Assembly (NCBI GenBank): GCA_965232115.1
Contig: OZ246958.1
Location: 960,076-1,024,075 of the forward strand
Direction of reading: 5' to 3'
Source of the DNA: Candidatus Poribacteria bacterium
Lineage (GTDB): Bacteria > Poribacteria > WGA-4E > WGA-3G
DNA: 64,000 nt
Made by a program: the position numbers and the translations under genes. Below, piece after piece: positions 11,928-35,563 of this stretch (positions are counted from its first letter, which is position 1; each line of letters begins with the position of its first letter). The notes beneath the pieces were generated by a model, which worked only from the letters and a program-made list of their open reading frames with translations, did no database searches and was not told the DNA's origin.

Positions 11928-12062
11928 ACTTTCTGTTTTTTTAACCTTTCTGTTAGCAGTCAGCGGTCAGCAAAGAGGTTTTGTGGATGGACAAACGTCT
12001 GCAACTGCCACACAATTTAGCTGACAACCGATTATTGACAACTGATGCCCATAAAAACTATT

Positions 12063-12371
12063 TTAACCCTTTAAGGTGTCCACTTCGTCGGGACGGATGC
12101 TACCGAATTCGCGGTAGATAGCGAGAATAATTGCTAAAAAGACAGCGGCTTCTGCGGCAGCGAGCACGATCCCAAAGATTGCGATAACCTGTCCGCTGAT
12201 ATCCTCTGGTGGTGTCATGAAACGCGCGAACGCTGCGAAGTTAAGATTGCACGAATTGAGAATAAGTTCGATGCCCATCAAAATGCTAATAGCGTTCCGT
12301 CGGGTTAAGACGGCAAAAATACCGAGCGTGAACAGAATCGCGCTGATGACGAGATAGTGTTGTAGGGTCAT
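12063..12371 (-). CDS. nuoK: NADH-quinone oxidoreductase subunit K
   Basis: 102 aa with MTLQHYLVISAILFTLGIFAVLTRRNAISILMGIELILN. Confidence 0.9.
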   Translation of the reverse strand: MTLQHYLVISAILFTLGIFAVLTRRNAISILMGIELILNSCNLNFAAFARFMTPPEDISGQVIAIFGIVLAAAEAAVFLAIILAIYREFGSIRPDEVDTLKG

Positions 12372-12889: not shown

Positions 12890-12947
12890 TTTTTTAATGG
12901 TTGTTGGTTATCGGTTTTTGGTTATTGTAAACTTATGAAACAGATAA

Positions 12948-13716: not shown

Positions 13717-14985
13717 CTAACTCGGTTGTGGTGCTGGTCTCTGGGCGAAAGTCCGCCCAGCAACTTTATACGCCGTGATAAGTCCGATGTAGATAATAGC
13801 GCAGCTAATGGCAGTGCTAATCAGCGTATCCTCTGGGAAAATAAGCCCCCAGATGCCAGTGCCTAAGATGTTGAAGAAGGCAATCGGGATGAAGTATTTC
13901 CAACAGAGATTCATCAGCTGATCTACTCGCAAGCGCGGCAGCGTCCACCTCAACCACATCATCAAAAAGACGAGTGCTGAGGTTTTGATAACGAAACCTG
14001 GGAAGCCGCCGAGAATATCATAACCCGGTAGCACGCCTTCCCAACCGCCGAGGAAAAGCGTCACCGCGATTGCACTCACAGCGAACATATTCGCATATTC
14101 AGCGATAAAGAAGAGCGCGAAGCGCATTCCGCTATATTCGGTATGAAAACCAGCAACGATTTCAGACTCGGCTTCGGGCAAATCAAAGGGTGTCCGGTTT
14201 ACCTCAGCAATTGAAGATATGAAGAAAATAAAAAATGCAATAAAGGTAAAAGGCGTTCGGAAGATGAGCCAGCTGAAAATACCGTTGGATTGGTTTGCTA
14301 CGAGCTCCGACATGCTCAAACTTTCAACGAGCATAACAACCGTTAGGATAGAGAGGCCGAGCGGAATTTCGTAGCTAACTATCTGGGCGGCGGAACGGAG
14401 TGAACCCAACAACGACCATTTGCTGTTTGAAGACCAGCCCGCCATAATTACGCCCATGACAATGACAGAGGAGATCGCCATGATATAGAAGATGCCGATA
14501 TTAAAGTCGCTCACCAAAATATTTTGACCGAACGGAATGGCAGCAAAAACAGCAAAGGAGCAGGCAAAAATGACATAGGGCGCGAGCAGAAAAAGGAATT
14601 TGTCGCCTTGCGGTGGGATATAATCCTCTTTGAAGAGGAGTTTAACCCCGTCCGCTAACGTTTGGAGGGTGCCCCACGGTCCGACGCGCATGGGACCCGT
14701 TCGATTCTGAAAACGTGCGGAGACCTTTCGCTCTGCAAGCACTAACACTAAGGGGAGTAGGGGGACCACTCCAACAAAGATACCGGCACATCCGAACATA
14801 ACGAGGACCGTGCCTAATTCCACAGGGAAATGCGAAGCAACCGCTTCCGGCAATCGTGGAAGGACGACGTTCTGTATAAATTCCTCTGCCCAATTGAGTC
14901 CATCTTGCAAGTTCATATTTGGAAAGAAACTTTCAGATACGTTGAAATATGGGAAACCTGCAAGCATTACCCTAAAGTCCGACAT
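13717..14985 (-). CDS. nuoH: NADH-quinone oxidoreductase subunit H
   Basis: 422 aa with the NuoH signature LAERKVSARFQNRTGPMRVGPWGTLQTLADGVKLLFKED. Confidence 0.9.
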   Translation of the reverse strand: MSDFRVMLAGFPYFNVSESFFPNMNLQDGLNWAEEFIQNVVLPRLPEAVASHFPVELGTVLVMFGCAGIFVGVVPLLPLVLVLAERKVSARFQNRTGPMRVGPWGTLQTLADGVKLLFKEDYIPPQGDKFLFLLAPYVIFACSFAVFAAIPFGQNILVSDFNIGIFYIMAISSVIVMGVIMAGWSSNSKWSLLGSLRSAAQIVSYEIPLGLSILTVVMLVESLSMSELVANQSNGIFSWLIFRTPFTFIAFFIFFISSIAEVNRTPFDLPEAESEIVAGFHTEYSGMRFALFFIAEYANMFAVSAIAVTLFLGGWEGVLPGYDILGGFPGFVIKTSALVFLMMWLRWTLPRLRVDQLMNLCWKYFIPIAFFNILGTGIWGLIFPEDTLISTAISCAIIYIGLITAYKVAGRTFAQRPAPQPS

Positions 14986-15011
14986 CTAATCTCCTTATCT
15001 GACAAGTGCGT

Positions 15012-16217
15012 TTACCGGTCAACCTCTCCCATCACAATATCAATACTGCCGATGATAGCGATAATATCTGCCACCATCAAACCGCGACTGAGTTCCTGCA
15101 TCACACTCAAAGCACTAAAACAGGGAGAGCGTCCCTTCACGCGCACTGGCTTGGGGGTACCGTCGCTGACAATATAGAATCCGAGTTCACCGCGCGGGGC
15201 TTCACTGCGGAAATAGATTTCGCCTTTTGGCGGACGAACGGCTTTTAAATCTGCCATAACAGGACCGTCAGGGAGTCCTTCGGCTAAAATCTGGCGGACA
15301 ATCCGGACAGATTCCTTCATCTCGTCCATACGGATTTTATACCGACTCCAACAATCACCGACAACCGCGCCTAATTCTGGCACATCCACAGCAACCGGCA
15401 CGTCAAAGTCAAATCTGTCATAGATGGAGTAGGGTTCGTCTCGTCGGAGGTCCCAGTCTACACCGGAGCCGCGAAGGTTAGGGCCTGTTGCGCCGTAGCT
15501 AAGTGCCATCTCCGCTGACATAACAGCCACGTCAGTCGTGCGTTCCGAGAAAATACTGTTTTTCGTCAGGAGTTCGTTATACTCATCAATCTTCGGTTCA
15601 AAATAATCTAAAAATGCTTCTATCTCGTCCAAATAATTCTGCTCGGCAATAGAACCCGACTCCATAGGAATAATTTCGGAGACACCCCCGATACGGACGT
15701 AGTTATAGGTGAGTCGTGCGCCACAGACCTTCTCGAAAAGGAGAAGCAATCGTTCACGGTCGCGAAAGGCGTAAAGGAACGGTGTAAATGCACCGAGATC
15801 CATGCCATAAGTGCCAAATGAGAGCAGGTGGCTTGCGATACGGTTCAATTCACAGATAAGCACGCGTAGGTATTCTGCACGTTCTGGCACCTCAAAATCC
15901 CGACTTTCGTCCGCTTCCAATAACTTTTCGACAGCGAGACAAAATCCCCAATTCTGGTTCATCGCTGCGATGTAATCCATCCGGTCGGTAAACGGAATGA
16001 TTTGGGGATAAGAGAGGTTTTCGGAATGTTTCTCGAAACAGCGATGTAGGTAGCCGATATGCGGAATCGCTTCACGGACGACCTCGCCATCTAGCTTTAA
16101 CTCCAAGCGTAACACACCGTGTGTACTGGGATGCTGCGGTCCCATGTTCACCACCATCTCATCGGCGAACGGTTTTAATTCGATAATTTTGCTTTCGGTC
16201 TGTTGTGTCGTTTCCAT
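15012..16217 (-). CDS. nuoD: NADH-quinone oxidoreductase subunit D
   Basis: 401 aa with MVVNMGPQHPSTHGVLRLELKLDGEVV. Confidence 0.9.
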   Translation of the reverse strand: METTQQTESKIIELKPFADEMVVNMGPQHPSTHGVLRLELKLDGEVVREAIPHIGYLHRCFEKHSENLSYPQIIPFTDRMDYIAAMNQNWGFCLAVEKLLEADESRDFEVPERAEYLRVLICELNRIASHLLSFGTYGMDLGAFTPFLYAFRDRERLLLLFEKVCGARLTYNYVRIGGVSEIIPMESGSIAEQNYLDEIEAFLDYFEPKIDEYNELLTKNSIFSERTTDVAVMSAEMALSYGATGPNLRGSGVDWDLRRDEPYSIYDRFDFDVPVAVDVPELGAVVGDCWSRYKIRMDEMKESVRIVRQILAEGLPDGPVMADLKAVRPPKGEIYFRSEAPRGELGFYIVSDGTPKPVRVKGRSPCFSALSVMQELSRGLMVADIIAIIGSIDIVMGEVDR

Positions 16218-16338
16218 AATGTGGGTTTTACGAAGCTCAAAGTTGTTATTAATACCTATCTGTTTGCCCTATATATGATACCACTTTTGCGGTCCAATGT
16301 CAAGTCTTAACCTGTCTTTTCGGTTGTCAATTCTGTGG

Positions 16339-16370
16339 AAAAATGTTACACCAGTGTAACATTTTTTGTT
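16339..16370. promoter_or_regulatory. Perfect 11-bp inverted repeat AAAATGTTACA-CCAG-TGTAACATTTT (candidate operator) in the nuoC-nuoD spacer
   Basis: The palindrome is seen directly in the sequence. A third half-site, AAAGTGTAACATTTT, lies at 16453-16468. The spacer is 280 bp and sits inside an otherwise tightly packed operon. Confidence 0.35.
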
Positions 16371-16496
16371 TGGTATCTATGTCTAATAAACCCTTGTGCT
16401 GCCTGAGTTTTCAAAGCATTTCTGGTTCTGATGTTCCGATGGAAAAAAAGCCAAAAGTGTAACATTTTCAGGTGCTAAACGCCACACAAATCTGTC

Positions 16497-16982
16497 CTAA
16501 TATGGCACGCGCATGCCGCGATAGAATTCGGGTTCCTTGTAATCTTTGCGGAGCGGATACCCCTCCCAATCGTCGGGCAACAAGATGCGCCGCAGGTCAT
16601 TGTGTCCTTCAAAGAAGATTCCGTAGAGGTCGTAAGCCTCGCGTTCGTGCCAATCCGCCGTTTTCCAGATATGTGAGACGCTTGGAAGGTGTGGATTTGT
16701 TTTTGGTACCAAAGCTTTGATGACCACACTGTGTCGATGTCGCATGGAATAGAGGTGATAGACGACAGCAAACTCTTCATCGTTGGCATTCCGGTCGAGA
16801 CCGCTCAGACACATCAGGGAATCAAATGCCAATGAATCGGTTTCGGCGAGGTATTGACACACATCGGCGATGGCTGAGGGGGTAATATGGATGCTCGGGT
16901 CACCAGCGAGTTCGGTGTCAAAGTTGAGAACGGTTTCACTAAACTGCTTGGTTAGGACTTCATAGATTTCTTCTGGTTTCAC
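16497..16982 (-). CDS. nuoC: NADH-quinone oxidoreductase subunit C
   Basis: 161 aa with FAVVYHLYSMRHRHSVVIKALVP...DWHEREAYDLYGIFFEGH. Confidence 0.9.
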   Translation of the reverse strand: MKPEEIYEVLTKQFSETVLNFDTELAGDPSIHITPSAIADVCQYLAETDSLAFDSLMCLSGLDRNANDEEFAVVYHLYSMRHRHSVVIKALVPKTNPHLPSVSHIWKTADWHEREAYDLYGIFFEGHNDLRRILLPDDWEGYPLRKDYKEPEFYRGMRVPY

Positions 16983-21707: not shown

Positions 21708-24700
21708 ATGCCCCGCATTTTCGATAATATTGACCAACCGTTACTGCCTGCCCTCCAACAAACTCTTGAAACTGCTACACATGCCGACTTTTGCGTCGGT
21801 TATTTCAACCTCCGGGGATGGAGAGGGCTCGGCTCTTACATCCAAAATTGGAGGGGTGGCGATGGTGAATGTTGTCGTCTACTCGTCGGCATGCAGCGAC
21901 TGCCTGAAGATGAACTTCGCGAAGCCAAACGACTTGCTCAGCAGCGCGGTGGAATTGATAACCAAACCGCACTTCGCCTCAAACGTAGATTGGCAGCGGA
22001 GTTCCGCGAACAACTGCCCGTGGGGGTGCCGACACGGACGGACGAAATCGGTTTGCGCCAATTGGCACAGCAGCTTCGCGACGAGAAGGTCAAGGTAAAA
22101 CTCTTCCTTCGATACCCGCTTCACGCAAAACTCTATCTCATCTATCGCGCTGACACGATTACGCCAACAGTCGGTTATCTCGGCAGTAGCAACCTGACCC
22201 TGTCTGGGCTTTCACTACAGGGAGAACTTAACATTGACGTTGTTGATGCCGATGCTTGTGAGAAGTTAGCGGATTGGTTTGAAGACCGATGGGAAGATCG
22301 ATGGTGTATTGATATTTCTAAGGAACTGGTCGAAATTATTGAGGAAAGTTGGGCGCGTGAGGCACGCATTCCGCCGTATCATATCTATATCAAAATGGCG
22401 TATCACTTGTCGCAGGAAGCACGCGCCGGGTTAACGGAATTTCAGATTCCTCGTGAATTTCAAGACAAACTCTTTGAATTCCAGACCGCTGCCGTGAAAA
22501 TTGCCGCACATCACCTCAATAGACGCGGTGGTGTACTCATCGGTGATGTTGTCGGTCTCGGTAAGACCCTGATGGGAACTGCACTGGCACGTATACAAGA
22601 AGATGATTATGATCTCGACACACTAATTATATGTCCGAGGAATCTTGTTGATATGTGGGAAAACTATCGGGAGGCATATCGTTTGCGCGGACGGGTTCTC
22701 TCGATTAGCCGAGTCATCAACGATCTCCCGGAACTTCGACGGTATCGACTCGTTATGATTGACGAAAGCCATAACCTCAGGAACCGTGAGGGTAAACGCT
22801 ATCGCGCCATTCAGGAGTATATCCAGCAAAATGAGAGCAAGGTTATCCTCCTTTCGGCAACGCCCTATAATAAAACCTATCTTGATCTCTCTAACCAACT
22901 CCGTCTCTTTGTGGACGAAACTGAGGACCTCGGCATTCGACCGGAACAATACATCAAGGCGTTAGGCGGCGAACTCCAGTTTAGACGGAAGCATCAAAGC
23001 GGTGTCCGAACGCTTTCGGCGTTTGAACAGAGCGAGTATATTGACGATTGGCGGGAATTGATGCGTCGGTATCTCGTGCGCCGTACCCGCAGTTTTATCA
23101 GGGAAAACTATGCCGCAACAGACCCTAAAACAGATAGGAAATTCCTCTCCTTTCCTGATGGCAGGCACTCCTATTTCCCTACACGTCGACCGAAAACCGT
23201 CCAGTTCACGATCGATGACCAAAACCCTGAAGATACCTACGCCCAGCTGTATTCGTCTGCTGTTGTGAACATAATTAGCAATCTCAAGTTAGCGCGATAT
23301 GGACTCGCCAATTACGAGATCAGTGAACATTCATCGGAATCTCTTTCTCAAAATGAGAGGACAATACTGGAAAACCTTTCTCGTGGTGGACAACGGTTAA
23401 TGGGATTTTGCCGAACCAACCTTTTCAAACGCCTGGAAAGTAGTGGGCAAGCGTTCATTCAATCTGTTGATCGGCACATTCTTCGCAATTATATCTTCCT
23501 TCACGCCATTGAGAATGACGAACCGCTACCTATCGGTGGGCAAGATGCCGAAATGCTTGATACCCGGTTTGAAGATAGAGATACCGATGATGCCAATCTT
23601 ATCGTGGATGCTTTTGGTGATGAGGATGATACAGAGATTAATGGGATCGATTCGCCATATAGTGGATATACAGCCGATGCATACAAACAGCGCGCTGCCG
23701 AGATTTATGGGCTTTACGAGACGCGGTATCAAAGCCGATTTAAATGGATCCGTTCAAATCTCTTCCATTCAATGCTTCGCGAAGATCTCACGGATGACGC
23801 GATCGCACTCACTGAAATCTTGAAACAATACGGGACATGGGACCCCGAAAAAGACGTAAAACTTAACGCGCTGCAAAACCTTTTAACCCAGACACACCGT
23901 AAGGAGAAGGTCCTCGTTTTCACCCAGTTCGCGGATACGGTGCAGTATCTGACAGATGCGCTCTCAGAACGCGGCCTCACGCAAATTGCCGCTGCAACCG
24001 GCAGCTCAGCAGATCCGACGGGATTGGCGTGGCGATTCAGTCCTGTGAGCAACGATAAACGGCGTAGAATTAAGCCCCAAGACGAGTTGCGGATACTCAT
24101 CAGCACAGATGTTCTGAGTGAGGGGCAGAATCTGCAAGACTGTTCAATCGTCGTCAACTACGACCTACCGTGGGCTATCATACGCCTTGTGCAGCGCGCG
24201 GGTAGGGTTGACCGGATTGGGCAAACCGCTGAAGAAATTTTATGCTATTCGTTTCTACCCGCCGAAGGTGTAGAACGCATTATTGATTTACGTGGACGCG
24301 TCCGCGCACGCCTCCAGCAGAACAGAGAGGTCATTGGCACGGACGAAGCCTTCTTTGAAGATGACGGTGATGAGGGCAATGAGACAATCGTTAATCTCTA
24401 TAATGAACAGGCAGGTTTGCTTGATGATGAGCAAGATAACGATGTCGATCTCGCCTCTCATGTGTATCAGATTTGGAAAAATGCGATTACGCAGGATCCA
24501 CACTTAGAGAAAGTTATTTCAGAACTTCCTTCTGTCGTTTATTCGACCCGACCGCACGTCCCTAACGATAATGCCCCGGAAGGTGCTCTCGTCTATATCC
24601 GTACAGGGCAAGAAAATGACGCACTTGCATGGATAGACCGGGATGGGCAGAGCGTCACGGAATCCCAATTTGCGATTCTTCAAGCCGCGGCTTGCCAACC

Positions 24701-25112
24701 GGATACTGAAGGACTCCTCCCCCTTGAAGGGCATCACCGTCTCGTAGAAGAAGCCGCGAGGCTAATCGTCTCTGAGGAGCGGTCGGTTGGCGGGCAACTT
24801 GGACGACCATCGGGGGCGCGTTTCCGGACTTATGAACGTTTGAAAGATTACGCCTCTGAAGTGGAAGGCTCGTTGTTTGTGGATATGCAGAAACTTGAAA
24901 GAGTCATTCAAGCGATCTACCGGCACCCACTCCGTCAAACAGCAACCGACTCCCTCAATCGCCAACTCCGCAGTGGTGTCTCCAATGAAGACCTCGCAGC
25001 ACGCGTTATAGAGTTATGGGAGGACGAGCGACTCTGTATTATTGAGGAAGAACGCCAAACACGAGAACCACAGATCGTTTGCTCGCTGGGACTTCGCGCA
25101 GATGATGCCTAA
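21708..25112 (+). CDS. HKD (PLD-like/NgoFVII-like) nuclease domain fused to SNF2-family helicase, 1134 aa
   Basis: It has a single N-terminal HKD motif (PLHAKLYLIY...GSSNLT). SNF2 motifs are present: VVGLGKTLMG, LVMIDESHNLRN, LLSATPYNKT. The helicase C-terminal domain carries ILISTDVLSEGQNLQD and QRAGRVDRIGQ. Confidence 0.85.
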   Translation: MPRIFDNIDQPLLPALQQTLETATHADFCVGYFNLRGWRGLGSYIQNWRGGDGECCRLLVGMQRLPEDELREAKRLAQQRGGIDNQTALRLKRRLAAEFREQLPVGVPTRTDEIGLRQLAQQLRDEKVKVKLFLRYPLHAKLYLIYRADTITPTVGYLGSSNLTLSGLSLQGELNIDVVDADACEKLADWFEDRWEDRWCIDISKELVEIIEESWAREARIPPYHIYIKMAYHLSQEARAGLTEFQIPREFQDKLFEFQTAAVKIAAHHLNRRGGVLIGDVVGLGKTLMGTALARIQEDDYDLDTLIICPRNLVDMWENYREAYRLRGRVLSISRVINDLPELRRYRLVMIDESHNLRNREGKRYRAIQEYIQQNESKVILLSATPYNKTYLDLSNQLRLFVDETEDLGIRPEQYIKALGGELQFRRKHQSGVRTLSAFEQSEYIDDWRELMRRYLVRRTRSFIRENYAATDPKTDRKFLSFPDGRHSYFPTRRPKTVQFTIDDQNPEDTYAQLYSSAVVNIISNLKLARYGLANYEISEHSSESLSQNERTILENLSRGGQRLMGFCRTNLFKRLESSGQAFIQSVDRHILRNYIFLHAIENDEPLPIGGQDAEMLDTRFEDRDTDDANLIVDAFGDEDDTEINGIDSPYSGYTADAYKQRAAEIYGLYETRYQSRFKWIRSNLFHSMLREDLTDDAIALTEILKQYGTWDPEKDVKLNALQNLLTQTHRKEKVLVFTQFADTVQYLTDALSERGLTQIAAATGSSADPTGLAWRFSPVSNDKRRRIKPQDELRILISTDVLSEGQNLQDCSIVVNYDLPWAIIRLVQRAGRVDRIGQTAEEILCYSFLPAEGVERIIDLRGRVRARLQQNREVIGTDEAFFEDDGDEGNETIVNLYNEQAGLLDDEQDNDVDLASHVYQIWKNAITQDPHLEKVISELPSVVYSTRPHVPNDNAPEGALVYIRTGQENDALAWIDRDGQSVTESQFAILQAAACQPDTEGLLPLEGHHRLVEEAARLIVSEERSVGGQLGRPSGARFRTYERLKDYASEVEGSLFVDMQKLERVIQAIYRHPLRQTATDSLNRQLRSGVSNEDLAARVIELWEDERLCIIEEERQTREPQIVCSLGLRADDA

Positions 25113-25222
25113 ACCTGTGTAAGCAGAGGTTTGTAACTTCACCTTCCAAAAAATGTTGAACGCCAATAGGATATCGTATATAATTTGCATAAATCTAATA
25201 TCTTCTCATACGGAGGTTTCCT

Positions 25223-25444
25223 ATGAACTTAACTTCACAAAGCATATTGGAGTCATTCAATCAACTCCCTGAAGTAGAAAAACATGAACTCGCCTCTGAA
25301 ATCATAAGGAGCGTAGTTATGCTAAATTTTCCACCTTTAACAGATGAAGCACTCGCCGAAGTTGCTGATGCTCTTTTCATTGAACACGAAGAGATGGAGG
25401 CAAATGATGCCCAAGCCGAAACGAGGGGAAGTTTGGCTGGTTGA
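25223..25444 (+). CDS. Putative antitoxin (MazE/PemI-like partner), 73 aa
   Basis: It is a small acidic ORF with GGAGG 7 nt upstream of ATG. Its 3' end overlaps the MazF-like gene. Confidence 0.4.
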   Translation: MNLTSQSILESFNQLPEVEKHELASEIIRSVVMLNFPPLTDEALAEVADALFIEHEEMEANDAQAETRGSLAG

Positions 25445-25724
25445 CCTCGGTATGGTTGCAAAAGTTAGACCTTGCCTTGTTATAAGCACTCCTGCTCTTG
25501 TGCAAGACCGCGCCCTTGTTACCGTGGTGACCCATACAACCGCTTCGCGTCGCTCAAGGTTTGAGGTCTTTGTAGAAACAAGATTTCTAAATGCCACTGG
25601 TGTTTTTGACGCACAGAGTTTAATTACTGTCTCAGAAGCGAAATGTTTGAAAAAATTGGGAGATCTTCTGCCCTCCCAATTATCTGCAGTTGAAGATGCA
25701 GTGCGTCAATGGCTAAACCTTTAA
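25404..25724 (+). CDS. MazF/PemK-family endoribonuclease toxin
   Basis: From the internal Met it reads MMPKPKRGEVWLVDLGMVAKVRPCLVIS...VTVVTHTTASRRSRFEVFVE, matching MazF/PemK motifs. Confidence 0.65.
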   Translation: MMPKPKRGEVWLVDLGMVAKVRPCLVISTPALVQDRALVTVVTHTTASRRSRFEVFVETRFLNATGVFDAQSLITVSEAKCLKKLGDLLPSQLSAVEDAVRQWLNL

Positions 25725-25747
25725 CGTTAAGTTAACAGAAAACCCTA

Positions 25748-28700: not shown

Positions 28701-28996
28701 TGAGAGAAATTGTCAATTTTTCTTTTACTCCCGAGAATTTAAATCAGATGCAGTTGATTCAATTGTCCAAAATAACGGAAGAACTAATGGAGGACTATCG
28801 TAAGCACGCAAATCGCAAAGAAACAAACTACAAAACCACTGGTAAAGTAATCTATGATGAGTTTTTTCCCCGTCACTCCAAATCCATCATAGACAAAATT
28901 GACCGTGTGCTTGCCGAACACTACGGCTTCACAGACGAGGAATTGGATTTCATCATCAACTATGATATTAAGTATCGTATGGGGTTAGGAAATTGA
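25748..28996 (+). CDS. Gamma-class N6-adenine DNA methyltransferase with large N- and C-terminal extensions (MmeI/PglX/Eco57I-like), 1082 aa
   Basis: It has motif X-like GAYYTKEDIT, motif I ILDPTCGSGAFLFAAL and motif IV VIIGNPPYKEY. The upstream helix RLMFIYFIQKKSFL resembles the MmeI/PglX family. A long C-terminal target-recognition region follows. Confidence 0.85.
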   Translation: MLNLQETRQYLRESDFENLFTQQLGWEYHTQTLNIAVDETEYQLTAIAEKRGVIVFECPAIETDGRIPDYATRRKIQKQVAKSAHEHFIIYTDADKTIQIWQWVKREQGKPDACREHRYNSNEHSGESLIQKLRDIVFTLDEEEELGLFGVIGRVQTAFDVEKVTKKFYDHFKREHTAFLKFLKGVPDDDMQKWYVSVMLNRLMFIYFIQKKSFLDNNENYLHAKLVRSQANGTNRYYKDFLCPLFFEGFAKPENERSREMKRLLGKIPYLNGGIFQKHQLETLHGENIEIPDKAFEQIFKFFEQYQWHLDDRPLRNDNEINPDVLGYIFEKYINQKQMGAYYTKEDITEYISKNTIIPFLFDKARKACKIAFEGDASVWQLLQDDPGRYIYDAVKKGVREQLPPEIAAGINDISKRTEWNELAPDKYALPTEIWRETVARQQRCKTLQGKLANGEIDNINDLITYNLNIRQFAQDVIENCEGPELLRAFWKSITEVTILDPTCGSGAFLFAALNILEPLYEACLDRMQVFLDEVRAVSESRSSRRYRDFRELLDRIEEHPNRKYFILKSIIINNLYGVDIMDEAVEICKLRLFLKMIAQIEDVRRIEPLPDIDFNVQAGNTLVGYATYDAVERPEKGRFDFENAMVRIKEKAEDVKILFQEFRRQQTTLGGAVTPADKQNLQSRLQELEDELNLYLADEYGVDPNKQSDYEKWLNSHKPFHWFIAFYGILEDGGFDVIIGNPPYKEYREVKKQYTVKGYKTEDCGNLYPMSIERSFDLSKGSVGMIVQLPLVCTDRMISAQSLFKTQNRKSWFANFDDRPGKLFDDLQHIRATIFLSKKEVNLNTATVYSTQYKRWFTETRSTLFQGIFYANITNICLKGIFPKIAGCVGKSIVNKLKNTKKAFLSFKTGKFACRFHNSPQYWIRATDFVPYFWNERDGKKQSQQIKDLRFSKKENAFAFCCLLNSSLFYWWFIISSDCRHLNMREIVNFSFTPENLNQMQLIQLSKITEELMEDYRKHANRKETNYKTTGKVIYDEFFPRHSKSIIDKIDRVLAEHYGFTDEELDFIINYDIKYRMGLGN

Positions 28997-29115
28997 CGAG
29001 GCCAACCGGTAAGGTCATCTAGCGGGGGTCAACACATTCCATATATTTACGGAACAATCGAGTATGTTTAACCCAATGAAGTGCCAACGCTTATTAGGGC
29101 CAGAATTTAGCAAAG

Positions 29116-29958
29116 TTAAGATAAGTTTTGTCTCTCAAATTCGGCTGGAGTCAGATACCCTAACGCCGAGTGAGGACGTTTCTGATGATACACCTGTCTG
29201 ATAAAATGCCCAATGCGGGTTCTCGCTTCATGGATGTCCTGATAGTCGTTGAGACAAACTTCTGCTTCCTTGAGCGTTCGGATCAACCTTTCGGCGTATC
29301 CGTTCTCCCAAGGACACCCGCTGCGCGCTACCGAAATCTGAATACCGTGTGCTTTGAGTATTGAGAGATACGCCTTTGAAAGATACTGCGCGCCTTGATC
29401 GGAATGATGGATCTCTGGAGACCCGCTTTGGTCTAAGGCTGTCTCCAAGGGTTTCAAAGTCAGTGATTGCGTCAAGTGTGGACCCAGATGCCACGCTCTT
29501 ATCATCCGAGTGAAAACATCCATGAGCAAAGCGAGATAGATGAAGCGTCTGTTGAGACGGACGTAGGTAATATCACCGACCCAGACCTGATCGGCTCGAG
29601 AGACTTCAAGCCCCTGAACTCTATTGACCCAGGGGATTTCACCTTCAAGGGATCTCGTGGTTTGACAGGTCCGTTTCACTGATACACACAGGTGTGCTGC
29701 TTTCATCAACCGAGCAATACGTCGATACCCAACGCGGTATCCCATACGCACCAATAACTTCGTGATACGTCGATACCCATACTTTGGATATCGCAGGGCT
29801 AACGCCTCTATTTCCGCTCGGAGCTCGGCTTCAGAAGGGTCGCTTTTCGGTTGATAATAGAACAGGTTCGGGTTGAAACCCAGCACCTGAGAAATCTCTC
29901 GCACCGAATGTTGCGTCCGCAACTTCTCAACGAGGCATCGCTGTTGAGACGGTGTCAC
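29116..29958 (-). CDS. IS3-family transposase OrfB (DDE integrase core)
   Basis: It contains HSDQGAQYLS...ENGYAERLIRTLKEAEV (DDE / rve domain). Confidence 0.8.
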   Translation of the reverse strand: MTPSQQRCLVEKLRTQHSVREISQVLGFNPNLFYYQPKSDPSEAELRAEIEALALRYPKYGYRRITKLLVRMGYRVGYRRIARLMKAAHLCVSVKRTCQTTRSLEGEIPWVNRVQGLEVSRADQVWVGDITYVRLNRRFIYLALLMDVFTRMIRAWHLGPHLTQSLTLKPLETALDQSGSPEIHHSDQGAQYLSKAYLSILKAHGIQISVARSGCPWENGYAERLIRTLKEAEVCLNDYQDIHEARTRIGHFIRQVYHQKRPHSALGYLTPAEFERQNLS

Positions 29959-30240
29959 TCCAAGAAAGTCAATGCTTTTTTTTCGATGTCCATTGCCACG
30001 GCCATTCTCCCAACGAGGCGTTCAAGGTGCGCGATACGCTCAGCATCCTTGCTTGCTTGCTAATCCGTGGAGACAAACAGCGTCGCCACATTTTCAACGA
30101 CTTGCTGCTTCCACTTCGAGAGCTGTTGTTCGCTGAGGTTATGGTGTCTACACAGTTCTGCTTGCGAAGTTTCACCACGGGGTGCCTCAAGCACGACTTC
30201 TGCTTTAAACTCGGGGGTGAAGTTTCTTCGTTTTGCCATC
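29956..30240 (-). pseudogene. IS3 orfA (HTH/leucine-zipper) interrupted by an in-frame TAG
   Basis: It reads MAKRRNFTPEFKAEVVLEAPRGETSQAELCRHHNLSEQQLSKWKQQVVENVATLFVSTD-TAG-QASKDAERIAHLERLVGRMAVAMDIEKKALTFLE, with the amber codon at 30061-30063. The slippery sequence A AAA AAA G is intact downstream. Confidence 0.6.
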
Positions 30241-30409
30241 GGAATGCTCCTTTCAGTAGATTGTTATTCTATCACAATCTTGTTTTAGAGGGTGGCCCTA
30301 ATTCCCGATGGCAGTACACAAGTTGCTACTTACACGATTTTAGACATGCATACCCCGTTTTTTACTCAAAACTGTCGATGATCGAGGCGTTTTGTAGCGC
30401 AAACTGTAT

Positions 30410-30512
30410 GAAGTTTAAGAAAATATTTCGGTAATATTCGATGCGGTTAGGAAACCGCACCTACCGGGTTTGGGGTGAATTAGAATTACCGAATTAATAA
30501 ATTAATCTTCAT
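30410..30512. repeat. MITE-like repeat family A, copy 1 (~103 bp; terminal inverted repeats ATTTCGGTAAT/ATTACCGAAT)
   Basis: It is near-identical (~95%) to 51858-51960. It contains the conserved hairpin GTGCGGTTAGGAAACCGCAC. Confidence 0.5.
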
Positions 30513-30664
30513 TTAGTTTGCGTCTTCAGATGCACAACTTAACAGGTTATGCTACAAACTGGCAACTTGGGTTATGTTTACTGTAAATAATTTAAATTAT
30601 TGCCTCAATTGTCAACTTATGTTAAAATAATTCGTCAAAGTGTATAGAGAAGATAAATTAAACT

Positions 30665-31489
30665 GTGCGAAAACAATTAAGCGAAACAGGTTCTAAACAT
30701 CCAATGAAAACAACACAATCCACCATAATATATGAGAACCCGCCTATTGACGAGATCGTTTGCGGTATACGCTTCGATCCAATTAAGCAGTTACAATCGG
30801 GGCATTTCGGTGTGCTATGGCAAAAGTTCAGAAGCGATTTTCCGATGACCGAAGACCAAATCATAGTGGGGCCTGTGTCCGAAGAAGATTTTGGAAGCCC
30901 TGACAAGTTTCCATTACCAAGGGTCTGGTTCATACACGAAAACGAAAACGGACTTATCCAAGTACAACGGAACCGCTTCCTTCATAATTGGCGAAAAAGA
31001 CGACCAGAGGATAAATATCCGGGTTACGAAAAAGTTGTCGAGGACTTTGAAAAATATCTATTTGGTTTCCAAGAATTTCTGTTAGAGGAAAACTTAGGGA
31101 ATCTTGTACCAAGGGAATACGAATTAACATATATTGACCTCATTCCCAAAGGACACGGGTGGGAAAATCCTGGCAATTTGGAAAATATTTTCCCAAACTT
31201 ATTATCTCTCACAAGACAGGGCATACCTTTAAACAATGTAAGAGGTATCAATTGGCAAACTATCTTAGATTTACCAGGCAGCTTGGGACAGTTAAGAACC
31301 TCAATTCGTAGTGCCCGTCGGATTTCTGACAATCAAGAAGTCCTTCACATGGAATTTAACGCACTAAGTGACCAACCATATCAACCGAGGCAAACCTGGT
31401 TTGAAGATGCACATAATGCAATTACCAACCTTTTTACTTCTCTTGTGAACGACGAAATTCAAGAGAAGTTTTGGGGGCGAAAATCGTGA
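30665..31489 (+). CDS. Hypothetical protein A of the AT-rich three-gene operon (274 aa; GTG start, alternative ATG at 30704)
   Basis: It is a long ORF in a region of lower GC with no recognisable catalytic motif. Its stop overlaps the next start as GTGA. Confidence 0.5.
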   Translation: MRKQLSETGSKHPMKTTQSTIIYENPPIDEIVCGIRFDPIKQLQSGHFGVLWQKFRSDFPMTEDQIIVGPVSEEDFGSPDKFPLPRVWFIHENENGLIQVQRNRFLHNWRKRRPEDKYPGYEKVVEDFEKYLFGFQEFLLEENLGNLVPREYELTYIDLIPKGHGWENPGNLENIFPNLLSLTRQGIPLNNVRGINWQTILDLPGSLGQLRTSIRSARRISDNQEVLHMEFNALSDQPYQPRQTWFEDAHNAITNLFTSLVNDEIQEKFWGRKS

Positions 31490-31938
31490 GAACTCGCTAC
31501 ACACAAGAAGCAACAACAATAAATAGGGATATAGTCTTTCCATCTCTCCATGGTGAAGCGGAAAAGTTGGATATTTTAAAACCTTTCCAGCAAAGCGTGA
31601 AAACAAGGTCTGGATTTGGCACTACTGTAGCAGTAATAGTTGGAAGTGCAATTTTCCTGCTCGGTGAAAGTGGAACATCAGACATCCCAGAACCTTTCGC
31701 GCAAGACCCAAGTGCATCCCTTGAATTAAACTTTGGCGAAAAGATAGAATCTGGCGTAACCCAAGATTTTGCAGATATACGACAGCAACTACCTCCTTTT
31801 CCAGTCTATAATGAAGAGGATATTCTTAACCTGGATGCTGATATAATCACTCCTCGGTGTGAATTTAGCACAATACGAGTTAAATTGATATACGAAGAAC
31901 CAAGTAAACCAACTCCGGTTGAGGATCCTTGGGAATAA
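31486..31938 (+). CDS. Hypothetical protein B (about 150 aa; GTG start overlapping the stop of A)
   Basis: There is a GTGA start/stop overlap. It has a central hydrophobic segment (FGTTVAVIVGSAIFLLG). Confidence 0.45.
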   Translation: MRTRYTQEATTINRDIVFPSLHGEAEKLDILKPFQQSVKTRSGFGTTVAVIVGSAIFLLGESGTSDIPEPFAQDPSASLELNFGEKIESGVTQDFADIRQQLPPFPVYNEEDILNLDADIITPRCEFSTIRVKLIYEEPSKPTPVEDPWE

Positions 31939-31954
31939 TAAACATCTGTTCCTT

Positions 31955-32491
31955 ATGAATATTGTGAAAACAACTTATCCTTGGTATTGTTTGGTAGATA
32001 GTGATGAAATAGAGCAAGGAGATATTCTGGAAGGTTGTCCTATATTTCTTCCACCGGCCAATTTGACCCTAAATTCCTTAGAAGCAAATTTCAGGTTGAC
32101 ACGACGGAATGTGATCGTTATGTCCCAAAGTTGTGATATGGTTAAGGGTAGAGAAAAAATCACCCAGGTCTTGCTCTGCTTTTTATGGAATCGTTCAGAA
32201 TACACACAGGGACATTTAGCTACGAACAAAGGTATGGAAGAAGCACGTAGGGGGCAACTTCCAGCTCATCACCTGCTAAACGAGTGTGAATTACCTAATG
32301 CAGAAAGAGAATTCAGAATTGTTGACTTTCACAATACTTACACGCTTCCGTTAGATTTTTGTAGGGCGTTTGTGGGAGAATCCCAAAATCGTATTCGGTT
32401 GCTCCCTCCATACCGAGAACATCTCTCTCAGGCTTTTGCCCGTTTTTTCATGCGGGTTGGCTTACCTACCGATATTCCCGCGTTCAGATGA
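31955..32491 (+). CDS. Hypothetical protein C (about 178 aa from MNIVKTTYPWYC; possible TTG start at 31919)
   Basis: The ORF ends with TGATAA immediately before the methyltransferase 3' remnant. It has several Cys residues (WYC, EGCP, SQSCD). Confidence 0.45.
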   Translation: MNIVKTTYPWYCLVDSDEIEQGDILEGCPIFLPPANLTLNSLEANFRLTRRNVIVMSQSCDMVKGREKITQVLLCFLWNRSEYTQGHLATNKGMEEARRGQLPAHHLLNECELPNAEREFRIVDFHNTYTLPLDFCRAFVGESQNRIRLLPPYREHLSQAFARFFMRVGLPTDIPAFR

Positions 32492-32521
32492 TAACCCGAT
32501 CTGACCTTGTCCTCGCCCAAC

Positions 32522-32599
32522 CACTACGGCTTCACTGATGAAGAATTAGACTTCATCACCAACTACGACATCAAATATCGGGTGGGTTTAGGGAATTGA
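32522..32599 (+). pseudogene. Remnant of the last 25 codons of a second MmeI/PglX-like methyltransferase gene
   Basis: It translates as HYGFTDEELDFITNYDIKYRVGLGN-stop, compared with HYGFTDEELDFIINYDIKYRMGLGN-stop at 28919-28996. The two are about 83% identical at the nucleotide level, with mostly synonymous differences. Stop codons lie immediately upstream in the same frame. Confidence 0.6.
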
Positions 32600-33081
32600 T
32601 ACGGCTGGTTGTCTAAATCGCGGATTTTACCGCGTTCAGGGACAGCGGCATTGGCTCTACACAGTCGCTAATTACTAATTTATCCAGACAGTTCGCATGG
32701 ATATTTCGTTAATTCTAATTTACCATTTCGTGTTTCACGGAGAGAGGCTATATTGCGTTCCACGGACCCCCTGACCTTAAAAAGATCTCCGTGAATCGCA
32801 TTGAAACCTACCACAGAAAGCATCTTCCTCGGTAGACTAAAGAACGTTGTCCCTTTCCTATCCTGAAAATCCCATAATCCTGCAAATCCTGATTCAGACA
32901 GTATAAATCTAAGTCCTTCCTCCTATAAAATTTCAGAGTAAGCCTTCCGAGAACCTTTCTCCAAAAACCGCCTAAAACTCAGTCCCAGTATGGATTTACA
33001 ATCCTTATTCAAATGTATCACTTTTCAGACTTTACTCTGAAGTACTCTGAAACGCGCTATTTTCTTTTTGGGATTTTTGCT

Positions 33082-33223
33082 AGGGCTATTTAGTTTTAAG
33101 AGTTAAGTTTACCTACATAAAACCTTCCCGTTTCCGGATGCCCGAATGTATTCGGGATAGCACACTTTTCCCGAACAAGTTCGGGCTTCCGGACTCAAAT
33201 TATTGGAAAACTAAATGCCCCTG
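33082..33223. repeat. MITE-like repeat family B (~142 bp; terminal inverted repeats CAGGGCTATTTAGTTTT / AAAACTAAATGCCCCTG)
   Basis: It is homologous to 58772-58903. Internal palindromes are CCCGAATGTATTCGGG and CCCGAACAAGTTCGGG. Confidence 0.5.
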
Positions 33224-33460
33224 GATTTTTACACAATACGGTTGCACGTATTCCCAACTTCTGTTAAAATTGTATGCAAAAGGAGCAGGACTTACGCAAT
33301 TTTGACCGTAATGCATGCTGTGAGATAGGAATTCTTGGACAAACATAAACGTTTGGAAGGCACGGATTGGGAAACCCAACCCCTACACCGGTTATGCTAC
33401 AAAAGAGCAGCATACGTAAGTGCTAAGGAGTCCTAAACATATTGTGAGACCTGAAAAATT

Positions 33461-34843
33461 ATGGAAATCACTGATCTCAAACAATACATTGCACAAGGCG
33501 AAAATGCCACGACCGAATTCAAAGAAAACTTCGATCAGGAAGCCATTGAGACCGCTGCTGCGTTTGCCAATACCGACGGTGGCACTGTTCTTATAGGTGT
33601 GTCTGATAGCGGAGAAATTAGGGGAATTACTATCGGCAAAGAGACCCTAAGAAATTGGTCAAACCGAATTGACCAAGCGACTGAGCCACGGGTGAATATA
33701 GAAGTTGGAGTCGTTGGCGTGGAAGGGAAATTGGTGCTGTGGATACGTGTTGCAGAGTGCTCGATAAAACCTGTCTCTGTTAAAGGACGGTGCTATAAAA
33801 GAGTAGGGAATAGCAACCGCGTCATGTCTCCCCAAGAGATTGCCCAGATGCACCTTGATGCCACTGGACACACCTGGGATGGTCTCTTAGTTACACGCGC
33901 TGGCATGGATGATATAGATGAGAAAAAAGTTGAGTGGTACCTCACCCGTCGAGAGACAATCCGAAATGTGTCTAAACCGCAAGGTATGAGCATGGCAGCA
34001 TTTTTGAAAAACATTAATGGTGTCGGCGATGATGGCACGCCAACCCACGCTGGCCTTCTTTTTTTCAGTAAGCACCCCCAACGCAGATTCTTCTACAACG
34101 CACAATTACGGGTCGTTAGGTTCAAGGGAACATCCGTTCTCCATCCGGTCATTGATCGCGTTGACTGCTTTGAAACCTTATGGGAGAACGTTAATACCGC
34201 TGAGGAATTCATAAGAAGAAACATCCGCCTTCTCAGTTTTCGGACCTCAAGGAGTTTCCAACGCGATGATAAGTTTGAATACCCACTTAATGCACTACGA
34301 GAGGCGATTATCAACGCCTTGATTCATCGCGACTATCAAGAAACCGCGGATGTCCGCGTTTTCATATTTGACAATCGCGTTGAGATCATTAACCCCGGCA
34401 CTTTTCCAGAAGGTGTTAGCCCAGATGAACCGACTCACAAACCGGTGAACCCTACTTTGAGTCAATTCATGTTTGATATTGGTTTTATTGAACGGTACGG
34501 TGCTGGTATCAGAATGATGCGAAGACTCTGTGAGGAGTGGGGAAACAAAGCACCGCGTTATGTATTTCACCCGCTTGAGACGAAAATCATCTTTGATTCC
34601 CCGATTCAAGAGAGCACTTTTATAGAAATCGATGATATTTCAGAGCAGTTGAACGAGCGTCAAAAGAAGGCTCTATTTTATGTAGAAAATAACGGGCAAA
34701 TTGCGACAAAAGAGTACGTAGAGCTCAACAATGTCTCGCGCCGGGTTGCCTATGAGGAACTAAAAAACATGGCTGATAAAGGTTTATTACACGTAATAGG
34801 CAAGGGAAGAGGAACCAAGTACGTACAAAAAGTAAGCGATTAG
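33461..34843 (+). CDS. Schlafen/AlbA_2-like divergent ATPase with HATPase_c_4 and C-terminal HTH (often misannotated as RecG-like)
   Basis: AlbA_2 N-terminus TTEFKENFDQEAIETAAAFANTDGGTVLIGVSDSGEIRGI. The later motif ALREAIINALIHRDY is typical of this family. Confidence 0.8.
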   Translation: MEITDLKQYIAQGENATTEFKENFDQEAIETAAAFANTDGGTVLIGVSDSGEIRGITIGKETLRNWSNRIDQATEPRVNIEVGVVGVEGKLVLWIRVAECSIKPVSVKGRCYKRVGNSNRVMSPQEIAQMHLDATGHTWDGLLVTRAGMDDIDEKKVEWYLTRRETIRNVSKPQGMSMAAFLKNINGVGDDGTPTHAGLLFFSKHPQRRFFYNAQLRVVRFKGTSVLHPVIDRVDCFETLWENVNTAEEFIRRNIRLLSFRTSRSFQRDDKFEYPLNALREAIINALIHRDYQETADVRVFIFDNRVEIINPGTFPEGVSPDEPTHKPVNPTLSQFMFDIGFIERYGAGIRMMRRLCEEWGNKAPRYVFHPLETKIIFDSPIQESTFIEIDDISEQLNERQKKALFYVENNGQIATKEYVELNNVSRRVAYEELKNMADKGLLHVIGKGRGTKYVQKVSD

Positions 34844-34921: not shown

Positions 34922-35563
34922 GTGATGCAACCCGTTCAAGTTATCAGACGAACAGACACGAATTATCCAGCAGGATTGGAGCGGTATTTAAAAACAGAAA
35001 CTCCAGAAACGATCTGGACACGCGGGAATCTCAACTTGTTACCTGGACAAAACACCGCCTTAAATGGAGACCTCTGGGCACTTTTCTGCTCCAGCAAATG
35101 TCCGGGGGAGATCATCCTAAAAGCACACGACTTGGCACAGGAATTTAGAAAAGCAGGCATCCCAACAATCGGTGGGTATCACTCTCCAGTTGAACAGGAG
35201 TGCCTACGCGTTTTACTGCGTGGTTCACAACCGATCCTCGTTTGCCCTGCAAGGAGTATCGAACGGATGCGACCGAAACCGGCGTGGAAGGATGCATTAT
35301 CCCAAGATCGTCTCTTGATTCTGTCTATTTTCGAGAATCAGGAACGAACGACAGCAGCATTGGCGAACCGGCGCAACGCCTTTGTTGCGGCATTTGCTGA
35401 TAATATCTGTATTGCGCATGCTGCAGCGGATAGTAAAATCTTGGAATTTGCGCAGATGATAATCGCTTGGGGTAAATCTGTTTTCACCTTTGACACACCA
35501 GCAAATGACGCACTTTTTCGACTTGGGGCGCGACGGATTGAACCGTCCCTAAGTGTAAAGTAA
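34922..35563 (+). CDS. DprA/Smf-like Rossmann (SLOG superfamily) protein
   Basis: LFCSSKCPGEII...AGIPTIGGYHSPVEQECLRVLLRGSQPILVCPARSIER resembles the DprA core (..S.GLA.GID..AHR.AL..GG.TIAVL..GLD). The assignment is tentative. Confidence 0.45.
   Translation: MMQPVQVIRRTDTNYPAGLERYLKTETPETIWTRGNLNLLPGQNTALNGDLWALFCSSKCPGEIILKAHDLAQEFRKAGIPTIGGYHSPVEQECLRVLLRGSQPILVCPARSIERMRPKPAWKDALSQDRLLILSIFENQERTTAALANRRNAFVAAFADNICIAHAAADSKILEFAQMIIAWGKSVFTFDTPANDALFRLGARRIEPSLSVK

Follow-up and report, generated by a model that had tools for sequence, protein, structure and literature searches.

Copies of a methyltransferase gene end border cargo cassettes in a helicase/methyltransferase/DprA-like operon of Candidatus Poribacteria

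The operon and its repeated gene end

In the 64-kb window analysed here (the whole stretch, hereafter W, from Candidatus Poribacteria), a helicase gene, a DNA methyltransferase (MTase) gene and a DprA-like gene lie in one operon, with cargo genes between the second and the third (Table 1). The 3′ end of the MTase gene, which we call the tail, is present twice, once in the intact gene and once as a remnant within the cargo, and the origin of this second copy is the subject of this paper. Candidatus Poribacteria are sponge symbionts and form an uncultured phylum. The loci compared with W are numbered L001, L002 and so on; 79 of them are genome loci with MTase homologues, mostly in Candidatus Poribacteria metagenome-assembled genomes from sponges. 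L001, an ENA metagenome contig, shows that the same population has been sampled at 3.9x; its MTase is exactly that of W, and the locus as a whole is 99.9% identical. At least 120 MTase homologues with 65–100% identity are among the matches listed, and their C-terminal tail is almost invariant.

The helicase matches the PADLOC profile 'HKD+Snf2' (C3a139, 178 bits) and is found upstream of the MTase in 70 related loci. The MTase matches PADLOC REase_MTase_IIG (PDLC03628, 1150 bits, positions 3–1095 of 1100) and, like Type IIG enzymes, has an N6-adenine MTase domain of the gamma class and, at the C terminus, a presumed specificity region. The sole Pfam match in its N-terminal 480 residues is DUF7814, and the HKD nuclease resides on the separate helicase protein; judged from its domains, the pair looks like a split, helicase-dependent restriction-modification (RM)-like system. 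The DprA-like gene, present downstream of the MTase in 53 loci, scores 39 bits against the NCBIfam dprA model, under its cut-off. In 16 compact loci, which belong mostly to other phyla (Latescibacterota, Desulfobacterales, Anaerolineae and others) and include two from Poribacteria, this gene starts 0–89 nt after the MTase stop, suggesting that the ancestral unit was a tight three-gene operon of helicase, MTase and DprA-like gene. The gap between MTase and DprA-like gene holds 0.7–9 kb of variable cargo in 30 of the 34 Poribacteria loci in which a DprA-like gene was found downstream, W included.

The last 25 codons and the stop of the MTase (28919–28996) recur on the same strand at 32522–32599, with 64 of 78 nt (82%) matching. 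Differences between the two copies are distributed over all 78 nt and affect 14 codons, 12 of them synonymously and two not (I to T, M to V), in line with the original prediction of a direct repeat with mostly synonymous changes. Local alignment adds 19 nt on the 5′ side (28900–28918 and 32502–32520), so that the remnant is about 98 nt long (32502–32599); a 1-nt insertion puts it out of frame. This pair is the longest direct-repeat family between 25 and 34 kb, the runner-up being 36 nt, and a nucleotide profile of intact MTase 3′ ends matches the remnant with E = 1.4e-29. Directly 5′ of it stand the TGA of the open reading frame (ORF) that we call ORF3 and a TAA (32489–32494), the stop codons that the prediction had noticed.

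The remnant belongs to a different allele. Its last 57 nt are 93% identical to the intact tails of L007, L008 and L022 vs. 81% to W's own tail (82% over the whole 78-nt repeat), which upholds the claim that it derives from a functional homologue and not from a recent duplication. Moreover, W 32502–33079 and 33235–33285 are collinear with the intact MTase end and the DNA downstream of it in L015 and L007, of which L015 is also syntenic in having purF downstream. Because of this collinearity, the remnant appears to be the original end of an MTase that formerly ran directly into 32600 onwards. L015 and L007 thus provide the empty sites that were sought in relatives, and compact loci in which the MTase is directly followed by the DprA-like gene also exist.

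Table 1. Features at the locus, with positions in the 64-kb window
Feature	Position	Strand	Basis
HKD (PLD-type nuclease) + SNF2 helicase, operon gene 1	21708..25112	+	Pfam PLDc_2, SNF2-rel_dom, Helicase_C
Small ORF + PemK/MazF toxin, toxin-antitoxin cassette	25223..25724	+	Pfam PemK_toxin 2.5e-13
Eco57I/MmeI-type N6-adenine DNA MTase, 1082 aa	25748..28996	+	Pfam Eco57I 3.7e-23, MmeI_Mtase
Intact MTase tail, last 32 codons + stop, repeat copy 1	28899..28996	+	Repeat and alignment
5′ leader of ORF1–3 cassette, left part, cut by insertion sequence	28997..29076	+	Homologous to L003 14933–15005, directly upstream of ORF1–3
IS3-family element, 1242 bp	29077..30318	-	NCBIfam transpos_IS3 254 bits; Pfam rve, HTH_Tnp_1
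Dispersed repeat, 105 nt, resembling a miniature inverted-repeat transposable element (MITE), in cassette leader	30408..30512	.	96%-identical copy at 51856–51960
Sigma-70-like promoter of ORF1–3 cassette, TTGCCT-17-TAAAAT, TG-extended	30600..30628	+	Sequence motif
ORF1, TIGR04255-family, function unknown	30704..31489	+	NCBIfam TIGR04255
ORF2, small partner protein	31486..31938	+	GTGA overlap with ORF1 stop
ORF3, 178 aa, predicted MazF/CcdB/Kid-like toxin fold	31955..32491	+	
Displaced MTase tail remnant, repeat copy 2	32502..32599	+	Alignment, profile match, collinearity with L015/L007
Non-coding region native to MTase downstream side, with dispersed repeats	32600..33460	+	Matches L015, L007, L009, L002, L077, others
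SLFN_AlbA_2 / HATPase_c_4 / winged helix-turn-helix protein, cargo family F4	33461..34843	+	Pfam
DprA-like (DNA_processg_A), operon gene 3, right border of variable region	34922..35563	+	PADLOC PsyrA 5e-16
purF homologue, 477 aa	from 36310		GATase_6/7 domains in identical L001 gene

Cargo turnover and tail remnants in related loci

Comparison with L002 delimits the variable region. L002 is syntenic with W, the locus being flanked by nuo genes and ThuA at one end and by the DprA-like gene, purF and AIRS at the other; its flanks are 93–97.5% identical to those of W, and the last ~900 nt of its MTase 97–100% (150-nt windows). Similarity ends ~10 nt before the MTase stop and resumes at 97.5% from 34893, 29 nt before the DprA-like start. 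Between these points L002 carries an SLFN-TPR gene and an AAA_15/21 ATPase pair, unlike the cargo of W; precomputed Pfam calls for its F6 gene give solely AAA-type ATPase domains. Near-identical flanks around different cargo are what the predicted cargo hotspot should look like. An exact 32-mer of the W/L002 tail found no match in the JGI metagenomes, i.e. no further very close relatives.

Across loci the cargo is modular. Its units include F9 (SLFN_AlbA_2 + TPR, ~515 aa), F14 (~543 aa), ORF1–3, the F4 SLFN gene (at 33461 in W), the AAA ATPase pair F6/F8, and Gp49/HigB-type toxin-antitoxin pairs. Cargo genes found at several loci all share the orientation of the MTase except for a few reverse-strand elements such as IS3 and the enzyme-like F38 and F70. 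The starts of F9, F14 and the ORF1–3 leader lie 3–64 nt beyond a tail, which may be intact or a remnant; in L074 the promoter of the cassette begins 3 nt after the MTase stop.

Protein-level and profile searches revealed tail remnants, on the same strand and downstream of an intact MTase, in at least 17 Poribacteria loci. Three of these have two remnants each (L003, L018 and L019), and a single one is present in L009, L012, L016, L021, L022, L023, L025, L027, L032, L040, L042, L074, L077 and W; L083–L085 also carry remnants. Outside Poribacteria they were found in L075 (Binatia) and L062 (Nitrospira), and multi-tail arrays are mainly a Poribacteria feature. The remnants are 30–98 nt long and lie at cassette borders, and all those examined sit 3′ of a cassette, immediately behind its last stop codon or within ~230 nt of it. 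In an environmental survey, a degenerate tail pattern retrieved 120 loci, of which 113 match the tail profile and four of these have a second tail, although some of the four could be half-gene copies like that of L057, described below; a fifth candidate was a single tail split into two matches.

These data bear on the possibility that the remnant is the last piece of a tandem second MTase that decayed by ordinary deletion, unlinked to the arrival of cargo, an outcome that would have spoken against the original prediction. Tandem arrangements do occur: L030 carries two complete systems less than 10 kb apart, and a 5′-truncated tandem MTase is present in the cyanobacterium L057. In no Poribacteria locus, however, does a fragment of more than ~100 nt of MTase sequence lie downstream of the intact gene, the remnants are found time and again at cassette borders with at most two per locus, and the DNA after the remnant is what follows the intact single MTase in L015 and L007. 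Decay in tandem is thus largely refuted and, in our estimate, extremely improbable; no tandem decayed MTase was seen in Poribacteria, and the cargo is highly variable.

The junction between ORF3 and the remnant is shared by several genomes. ORF1–3 with the remnant is collinear in L003 (14999–17069, 77% nucleotide identity), L018 (14360–16274, 74%) and L074 (2477–4447, 73%), and is recognizable at the protein and profile level in L083–L085, where ORF3 is 86% identical and the remnant lies 41 nt after its end. Because it is common to all these loci, the first three at 73–77% nucleotide identity, the junction appears to be old, inherited or moved as a unit, and not made by a recent 3.6-kb insertion. 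The intact tail of W and the next 73 nt correspond to the first remnant of L003 and the same leader (28940–29069 = L003 14876–15005).

The IS3 element, in turn, arrived separately and later, since it is bounded by its own terminal inverted repeats (TGaAgTGCCAaCG..ATTAGGGCCA) and has duplicated 3 bp of its target (CAA, at 29074–29076 and 30319–30321); the bracketed 3.6 kb is not one insertion. The original prediction of a 3.6-kb insertion carrying an IS3 element and an AT-rich operon therefore stands in its parts, the IS3 element and the three-gene operon both being present; it falls as to a single event, and the AT-richness is not distinctive. Low GC content was rejected as a sign of foreign origin, because the 3′ third of the MTase is equally at ~0.38 GC, here and in homologues. 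We also rejected IS3 as the agent of tail duplication: it has a target duplication of its own, lies inside the cassette leader, and is absent from orthologous cassettes.

Displacement is directional. The MTase remnants are always 3′ ends, and the SLFN gene and ORF3 likewise leave 3′ fragments. The F4 SLFN gene is full length in 15 loci, C-terminal-only (28–200 aa) in seven and N-terminal-only in none, its remnants spanning 84–600 nt. In L018, a 175-nt duplicate (13766–13940 vs. 16091–16267, 86.5% identity) comprises the last 50 nt of ORF3, the spacer and the tail; it is located upstream of the complete ORF1–3, and is preceded by a Gp49/HigB-type toxin gene with a truncated partner. We take this as evidence that cassettes too can be displaced and truncated from their 5′ side.

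Possible routes of cassette accretion

We consider it probable that displacement left the repeat as a scar, in a cassette array built by recombination anchored in the conserved tail. The loci have the structure of a sequential displacement array, whose anatomy, recurrence, empty sites and directionality can be read directly from the comparisons above. Starting from an ancestral operon with the DprA-like gene within a few bases of the MTase stop, the MTase/DprA-like junction would have become a hotspot in Poribacteria that accumulated defence-type cassettes. New cargo would recombine in on the MTase side, using as homologous anchor the MTase and especially its last ~30 codons, whose protein sequence is near-invariant. 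The incoming DNA would bring a fresh gene end together with cargo, and push the resident end and whatever follows it downstream as a short remnant; repeated rounds would yield arrays of alternating tails and cassettes. Cassettes or whole arrays could then be shuffled, deleted or replaced as tails recombine with one another or as exchange takes place in the flanks on the MTase and DprA-like sides. The enzymology may be RecA-type or homology-facilitated illegitimate recombination, with no dedicated recombinase. The remnants may be short because longer repeats of a conserved gene would be lost quickly by homologous recombination, along with the new cargo.

For W itself, the following history is plausible. 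The MTase would first have ended at 32599 and continued into 32600 onwards; the ORF1–3 module would have been placed before this end long ago, its junction being ~75% identical in other genomes; the upstream MTase would since have been exchanged with an L002-like allele; and IS3 would have come last, into the cassette leader. Consistent with this, the intact tail of W is a mosaic, L002-like to about −12 and then like the L003 remnant into the cassette leader. The extreme 3′ end of the intact gene thus seems to travel with the leader, which agrees with the rebuilt 3′ end that had been predicted.

Several points weigh against this account. All ~10 independent MTase remnants are no longer than 100 nt vs. 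84–600 nt for SLFN remnants; were breakpoints uniform over the 3.25-kb gene, the probability of this would be near (100/3250)^10. Long repeats can exist: the tandem MTase repeat retained in L057 (Dolichospermum) measures 1.4 kb at 98% identity. In its classical form, homology-facilitated illegitimate recombination usually removes recipient DNA past the anchor and does not duplicate part of the anchor, so tail duplication needs an extra assumption, for example that the tail was broken internally, that a circle was an intermediate, or that exchange was unequal. Among the loci compared, no event is recent enough for junction microhomology to be read. Finally, the recombinase scans were confined to the W genes at 21.7–35.6 kb and representatives of ten other recurrent cargo families, leaving out F6, several smaller families and whole genomes. 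Because the size limit of 100 nt is unexplained, a mechanism that prefers a site is retained as a minority reading.

The original prediction had gone further in this direction, and likened the MTase 3′ end to the tRNA 3′ ends used by genomic islands. In such a model the MTase 3′ end would be the attachment site of a dedicated site-specific system whose recombinase, encoded elsewhere, would act in trans, as in an integron or a mobilisable islet. The compact cassette arrays, mostly in MTase orientation and each bounded by a tail copy, would suit such a system, as would the limited size of the remnants (up to ~100 nt) and the left border of the recent W/L002 difference, within ~10 nt of the stop codon. 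The remnant 5′ limits, moreover, fall into three groups, at ~−98 to −87, −63 to −51 and −30 (positions ~205–225, 240–250 and 270–274 of a 303-position profile, or 98 to 30 nt short of the last base of the stop codon). The boundaries are not fixed to the nucleotide, however: they vary among junction types, at least eight different upstream sequences adjoining the 5′ limits, and with differences across the 78 nt there is neither an identical core nor a fixed crossover point. Among 44 intact genes, the choice between synonymous codons in the tail is free (entropy 0.6–1.0 at two-fold sites), so synonymous positions are unconstrained. Neither tail folds into an attC-like hairpin on either strand (DNA folding z-scores of −0.97 to +0.07 vs. 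shuffles).

Nor did the scans reveal a recombinase. In the bracketed segment, as had been predicted, there is no Phage_integrase or Resolvase domain by Pfam and NCBIfam, which recognized solely the IS3 DDE transposase and TIGR04255 and left two ORFs without a match. The Pfam scan of the ten other cargo-family representatives likewise gave no integrase, and no IntI gene lies next to the array, the flanking genes being those for the helicase, the MTase and the DprA-like protein; this does not extend to F6 and several smaller families, which were not scanned, or to the rest of the genome, which was not searched. The SLFN gene and ORF3 also leave 3′ remnants at arbitrary positions. The directional pattern thus fits replacement from a conserved upstream gene to an arbitrary downstream point and not a recombinase acting at a defined site, and we judge site-specific targeting very unlikely. 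For similar reasons (free synonymous variation, no hairpin, and no Rfam family anywhere in 28.8–33.6 kb) a hidden recombination site or regulatory element in the tail was rejected. The prediction is therefore partly right: the hotspot and the rebuilt 3′ end hold, and tRNA-like targeting does not.

Homologous recombination from tail to tail may instead be the main engine. In that case a cassette with a partial tail would loop out as a circle or exchange unequally, and the circle would re-enter any MTase tail by a single Campbell-type crossover, illegitimate joining being needed once per cassette type; this overlaps with sequential displacement and differs from it in the dominant step. Junctions of ORF3 and of F9 with a tail are each conserved across several genomes, the tail on the 5′ side being intact in some and a remnant in others, which favours this route. 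The remnants are also better conserved than neighbouring genes, with a codon-like substitution pattern: those of W and L003 are 86% identical (manual count) vs. 77% for adjacent coding DNA, and in ORF3-linked remnants the last ~69 nt are clean (0–4 unusual positions) and the first 30 decayed (3–11). Both findings fit refreshment from functional tails. The intact tail and the remnant of L083 are 95% identical, the first ~50 nt being identical by eye, and the mosaic intact tail of W points the same way.

Other features are difficult to accommodate. The two tails of W differ evenly along 78 nt and lack the shared block expected of a recent Campbell insertion, tails of 50–98 nt at 80–90% identity are poor RecA substrates, and it is unexplained why circles would never hold more than ~100 nt of MTase. 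We regard recombination between tails as an unlikely main engine, though one with a real chance of being right. A possible trace of a circle is L085, a 2106-nt Logan contig (6 samples, 10 similar places) that corresponds to L083 6502–8607 and holds exactly one ORF1–3 cassette; both of its termini lie within the MTase tail, where they overlap by 27 identical nt. We did not accept it as evidence for a circle, since an assembly break induced by the repeat would equally give such an overlap.

A bolder version of displacement anchored in the tail is that the tail is a functional, selected recombination handle. The operon would then be a platform that captures cassettes without an integrase and keeps a stock of defence modules between genes 2 and 3, with the invariant 30-codon tail docking incoming DNA by homologous recombination, possibly aided by the DprA-like protein; true DprA loads RecA on transforming DNA. 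Deletions from tail to tail would reshuffle the MTase-adjacent cassette, and the three recurring remnant lengths would mark preferred entry points. We think this quite unlikely; if true, with the tail as a selected docking site, it would be a new kind of cassette-capture system.

Sequential displacement, the reading that we prefer, is known from polymorphic toxin loci, including Rhs 'C-terminal displacement' (PMC2935791), orphan Rhs/CdiA-CT modules (PMC3967940) and the effector-immunity arrays of type VI secretion (T6SS) in V. cholerae (PMC5361080). For the last, homology-facilitated illegitimate recombination was proposed and a parallel to integrons noted; the published explanation for toxin arrays combines an anchor in the conserved part and an illegitimate distal join with frequent homologous exchange of whole arrays. 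As in the Rhs, contact-dependent inhibition (CDI) and T6SS arrays, modules acquired horizontally line up in one orientation behind a conserved gene, each bordered by a short leftover of that gene; newcomers adjoin the intact gene and displace older ones, and no integrase is evident. Here, by contrast, what is repeated is the extreme end of an enzyme gene and not a motif before a variable toxin domain; the protein itself is undiversified. The cargo consists of defence or toxin-antitoxin-type operons in place of toxin tips and immunity genes, and the array lies within an operon, between genes 2 and 3, in an uncultured sponge-symbiont phylum.

Islands and prophages at the 3′ ends of tRNA, transfer-messenger RNA (tmRNA) and protein genes similarly supply a replacement 3′ end that keeps the target intact, leaving the displaced end as a direct repeat, and their tandem accretion yields several repeats. 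Unlike at those sites, no tyrosine or serine integrase was found in the scanned cargo, the repeats are 82% identical with no identical core, boundaries vary by junction, and the units are 1–2-kb cassettes and not self-mobile elements. Integrons and clusters of attC sites lacking integrases (CALINs) share with these loci compact, mostly co-oriented cassettes that are each followed by a recombination-associated element, with the newest at the entry point and with defence cargo. Here, however, there is no IntI beside the array, the element between cassettes is a fragment of coding sequence without an attC-type hairpin, and several cassettes have their own promoters.

The gene content recalls loci related to bacteriophage exclusion (BREX). 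Part of PMC12839542 catalogues the auxiliary effectors that sit within BREX loci and within BREX-related ones that have HKD-SNF2 helicases and MTases; the likeness extends to an RM-like core of HKD-SNF2 helicase and N6-MTase and to embedded 'backup' effectors such as Schlafen-type proteins, OLD/ABC-type ATPases and toxin-antitoxin pairs. That part treats gene content, and describes neither gene-end remnants nor an accretion mechanism. Unlike BREX, the operon lacks DUF499 and PglZ and has a DprA-like gene in third place, which puts it outside the defined BREX or BREX-related types. The architecture is thus known and the context is new: inside an RM-like helicase/MTase/DprA-like operon, with defence and toxin-antitoxin cargo, in Poribacteria.

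Defence hotspots are well known, but the entry and exit of cassettes without mobile-element machinery is poorly documented. Here, rounds of acquisition each left a datable scar from a near-invariant gene, whose order and origin are readable from sequence. The array takes sequential displacement beyond polymorphic toxin loci, to an RM-like defence system of an uncultured phylum of sponge symbionts, and extra copies of a conserved gene end offer a search handle for such arrays in metagenomes. As by-products, the comparison brought out a widespread uncharacterised module of a TIGR04255 protein, a small partner and a MazF-fold protein, and a helicase/MTase/DprA-like operon spread over many phyla.

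Cargo genes, the helicase–MTase spacer and MTase variants

The ORF1–3 cassette and its leader can be described in more detail. Homology to the cassettes of L074, L011 and L003 starts at 30573–30600. ORF1 scores 69 bits against the TIGR04255 model (cut-off 30) over model positions 2–251 of 252, and has orthologues in L003, L010, L018, L027, L074 and L083–L085; a literature search found no paper mentioning the family. ORF3 is predicted to adopt the SH3-like barrel of the MazF/CcdB/Kid superfamily. Since it has no PemK_toxin or CcdB Pfam match at E ≤ 0.01, we file it as a predicted 'MazF-like fold' and not as a member of the MazF family. More than 5000 homologues of this MazF-fold protein exist, and ORF2-like and ORF3 genes occur together in Acidobacteria and other contigs that have no MTase or tail. 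The ORF1–3 cargo is therefore best regarded, from its distribution, as a putative toxin-antitoxin or abortive-infection-like module that is independent and was captured here.

ORF2 has no Pfam, NCBIfam or PADLOC match. Its C-terminal ~47 residues (31784–31938) gave 38 matches in 26 loci, one to three per locus. This module ends small ORFs of 67–160 aa that lie ~15–30 nt upstream of unlike genes (SLFN F4, F10, F63 and ORF3), as in L043 (14526–14675), L004 (14953–15112) and L019 (19473–19599 and 20668–20811); the SLFN gene of W is not accompanied by it. The module may be an antitoxin or adaptor domain of promiscuous use, or else a recombination handle of a second kind.

The IS3 element has the features of its family, with an orfA (HTH), an orfB (DDE rve), an A8 run at the orfA/orfB overlap and inverted repeats. 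This copy is probably inactive, because orfA carries an in-frame TAA at codon 60. L012 has an IS3 copy of 74% identity with the same ends. The MITE-like repeat is flanked by a 38-nt inverted repeat (30398–30435 and 30485–30522) and is, like IS3, a later addition to the cassette leader. A stretch of ~140 nt at 33082–33223 resembles 58763–58903 (84% identity). Both dispersed repeats (105 nt and ~140 nt) thus occur in non-coding cargo DNA and again 20–25 kb off, and resemble MITEs or repetitive extragenic palindromic (REP) elements.

Downstream of the remnant, a promoter-like site (33242–33270, TTGCAC-17-TAAAAT) lies within 33235–33285, of which 51 nt are 100% identical to L015 and 40 of 40 to L077, whereas the non-coding DNA around it has merely 75–86% identity. 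This site and the cassette promoter at 30600–30628 both contain CAACTTnTGTTAAAAT and may have a shared regulator. A related motif, GGTTATGCTACAAA, is present at 30545 and 33390. The F4 SLFN gene that follows is an older cassette. 'Partial DprA-like fragments' suggested by ORF clustering were withdrawn, as tblastn did not confirm them; they are probably artefacts of single linkage, for example antitoxins beside Gp49/HigB-type toxins.

The spacer between helicase and MTase (W 25113–25747; L002 9226–10000) appears to be a second variable or cassette site. A ParE-type pair in L002 replaces the PemK pair of W, the swap spanning from ~90 nt after the helicase stop to the MTase start codon. In most loci of other phyla the spacer is 8–66 nt, a few reaching 130–840 nt; in most Poribacteria loci it is 130–1450 nt, widened by inserts of toxin-antitoxin size, with six compact at 17–96 nt. 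No gene-end remnants were found at this site, the helicase C-terminus and the MTase N-terminus giving single matches except in L063.

The MTase itself is variable in several ways. Between W and L002 (25748–28996 vs. L002 10001–13255) it is a mosaic, with 80–96% identity in the middle, lowest near 26.9–27.5 kb, and 97–100% in the last 900 nt, a pattern that indicates recent recombination inside the gene, apparently independent of cargo. In L083, a complete 5.05-Mb Poribacteria chromosome, the MTase beside ORF1–3 (2910–6585) was called as two ORFs of 866 and 377 aa with no helicase called upstream; this may be a copy in decay at another site of the chromosome, or the split may be a long-read frameshift error. 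In L057 (Dolichospermum planctonicum NIES-80), a 5′-truncated second MTase (residues 161–1079) lies 1 kb 3′ of the intact gene. The two copies (10001–13240 and 14222–16942) share 98% identity over 1.4 kb and 96% in the tail, and have no detectable nucleotide match in the presumed specificity region. The second copy looks like a silent half-gene that offers an alternative when specificity is switched, and switching may be the reason why it is retained.

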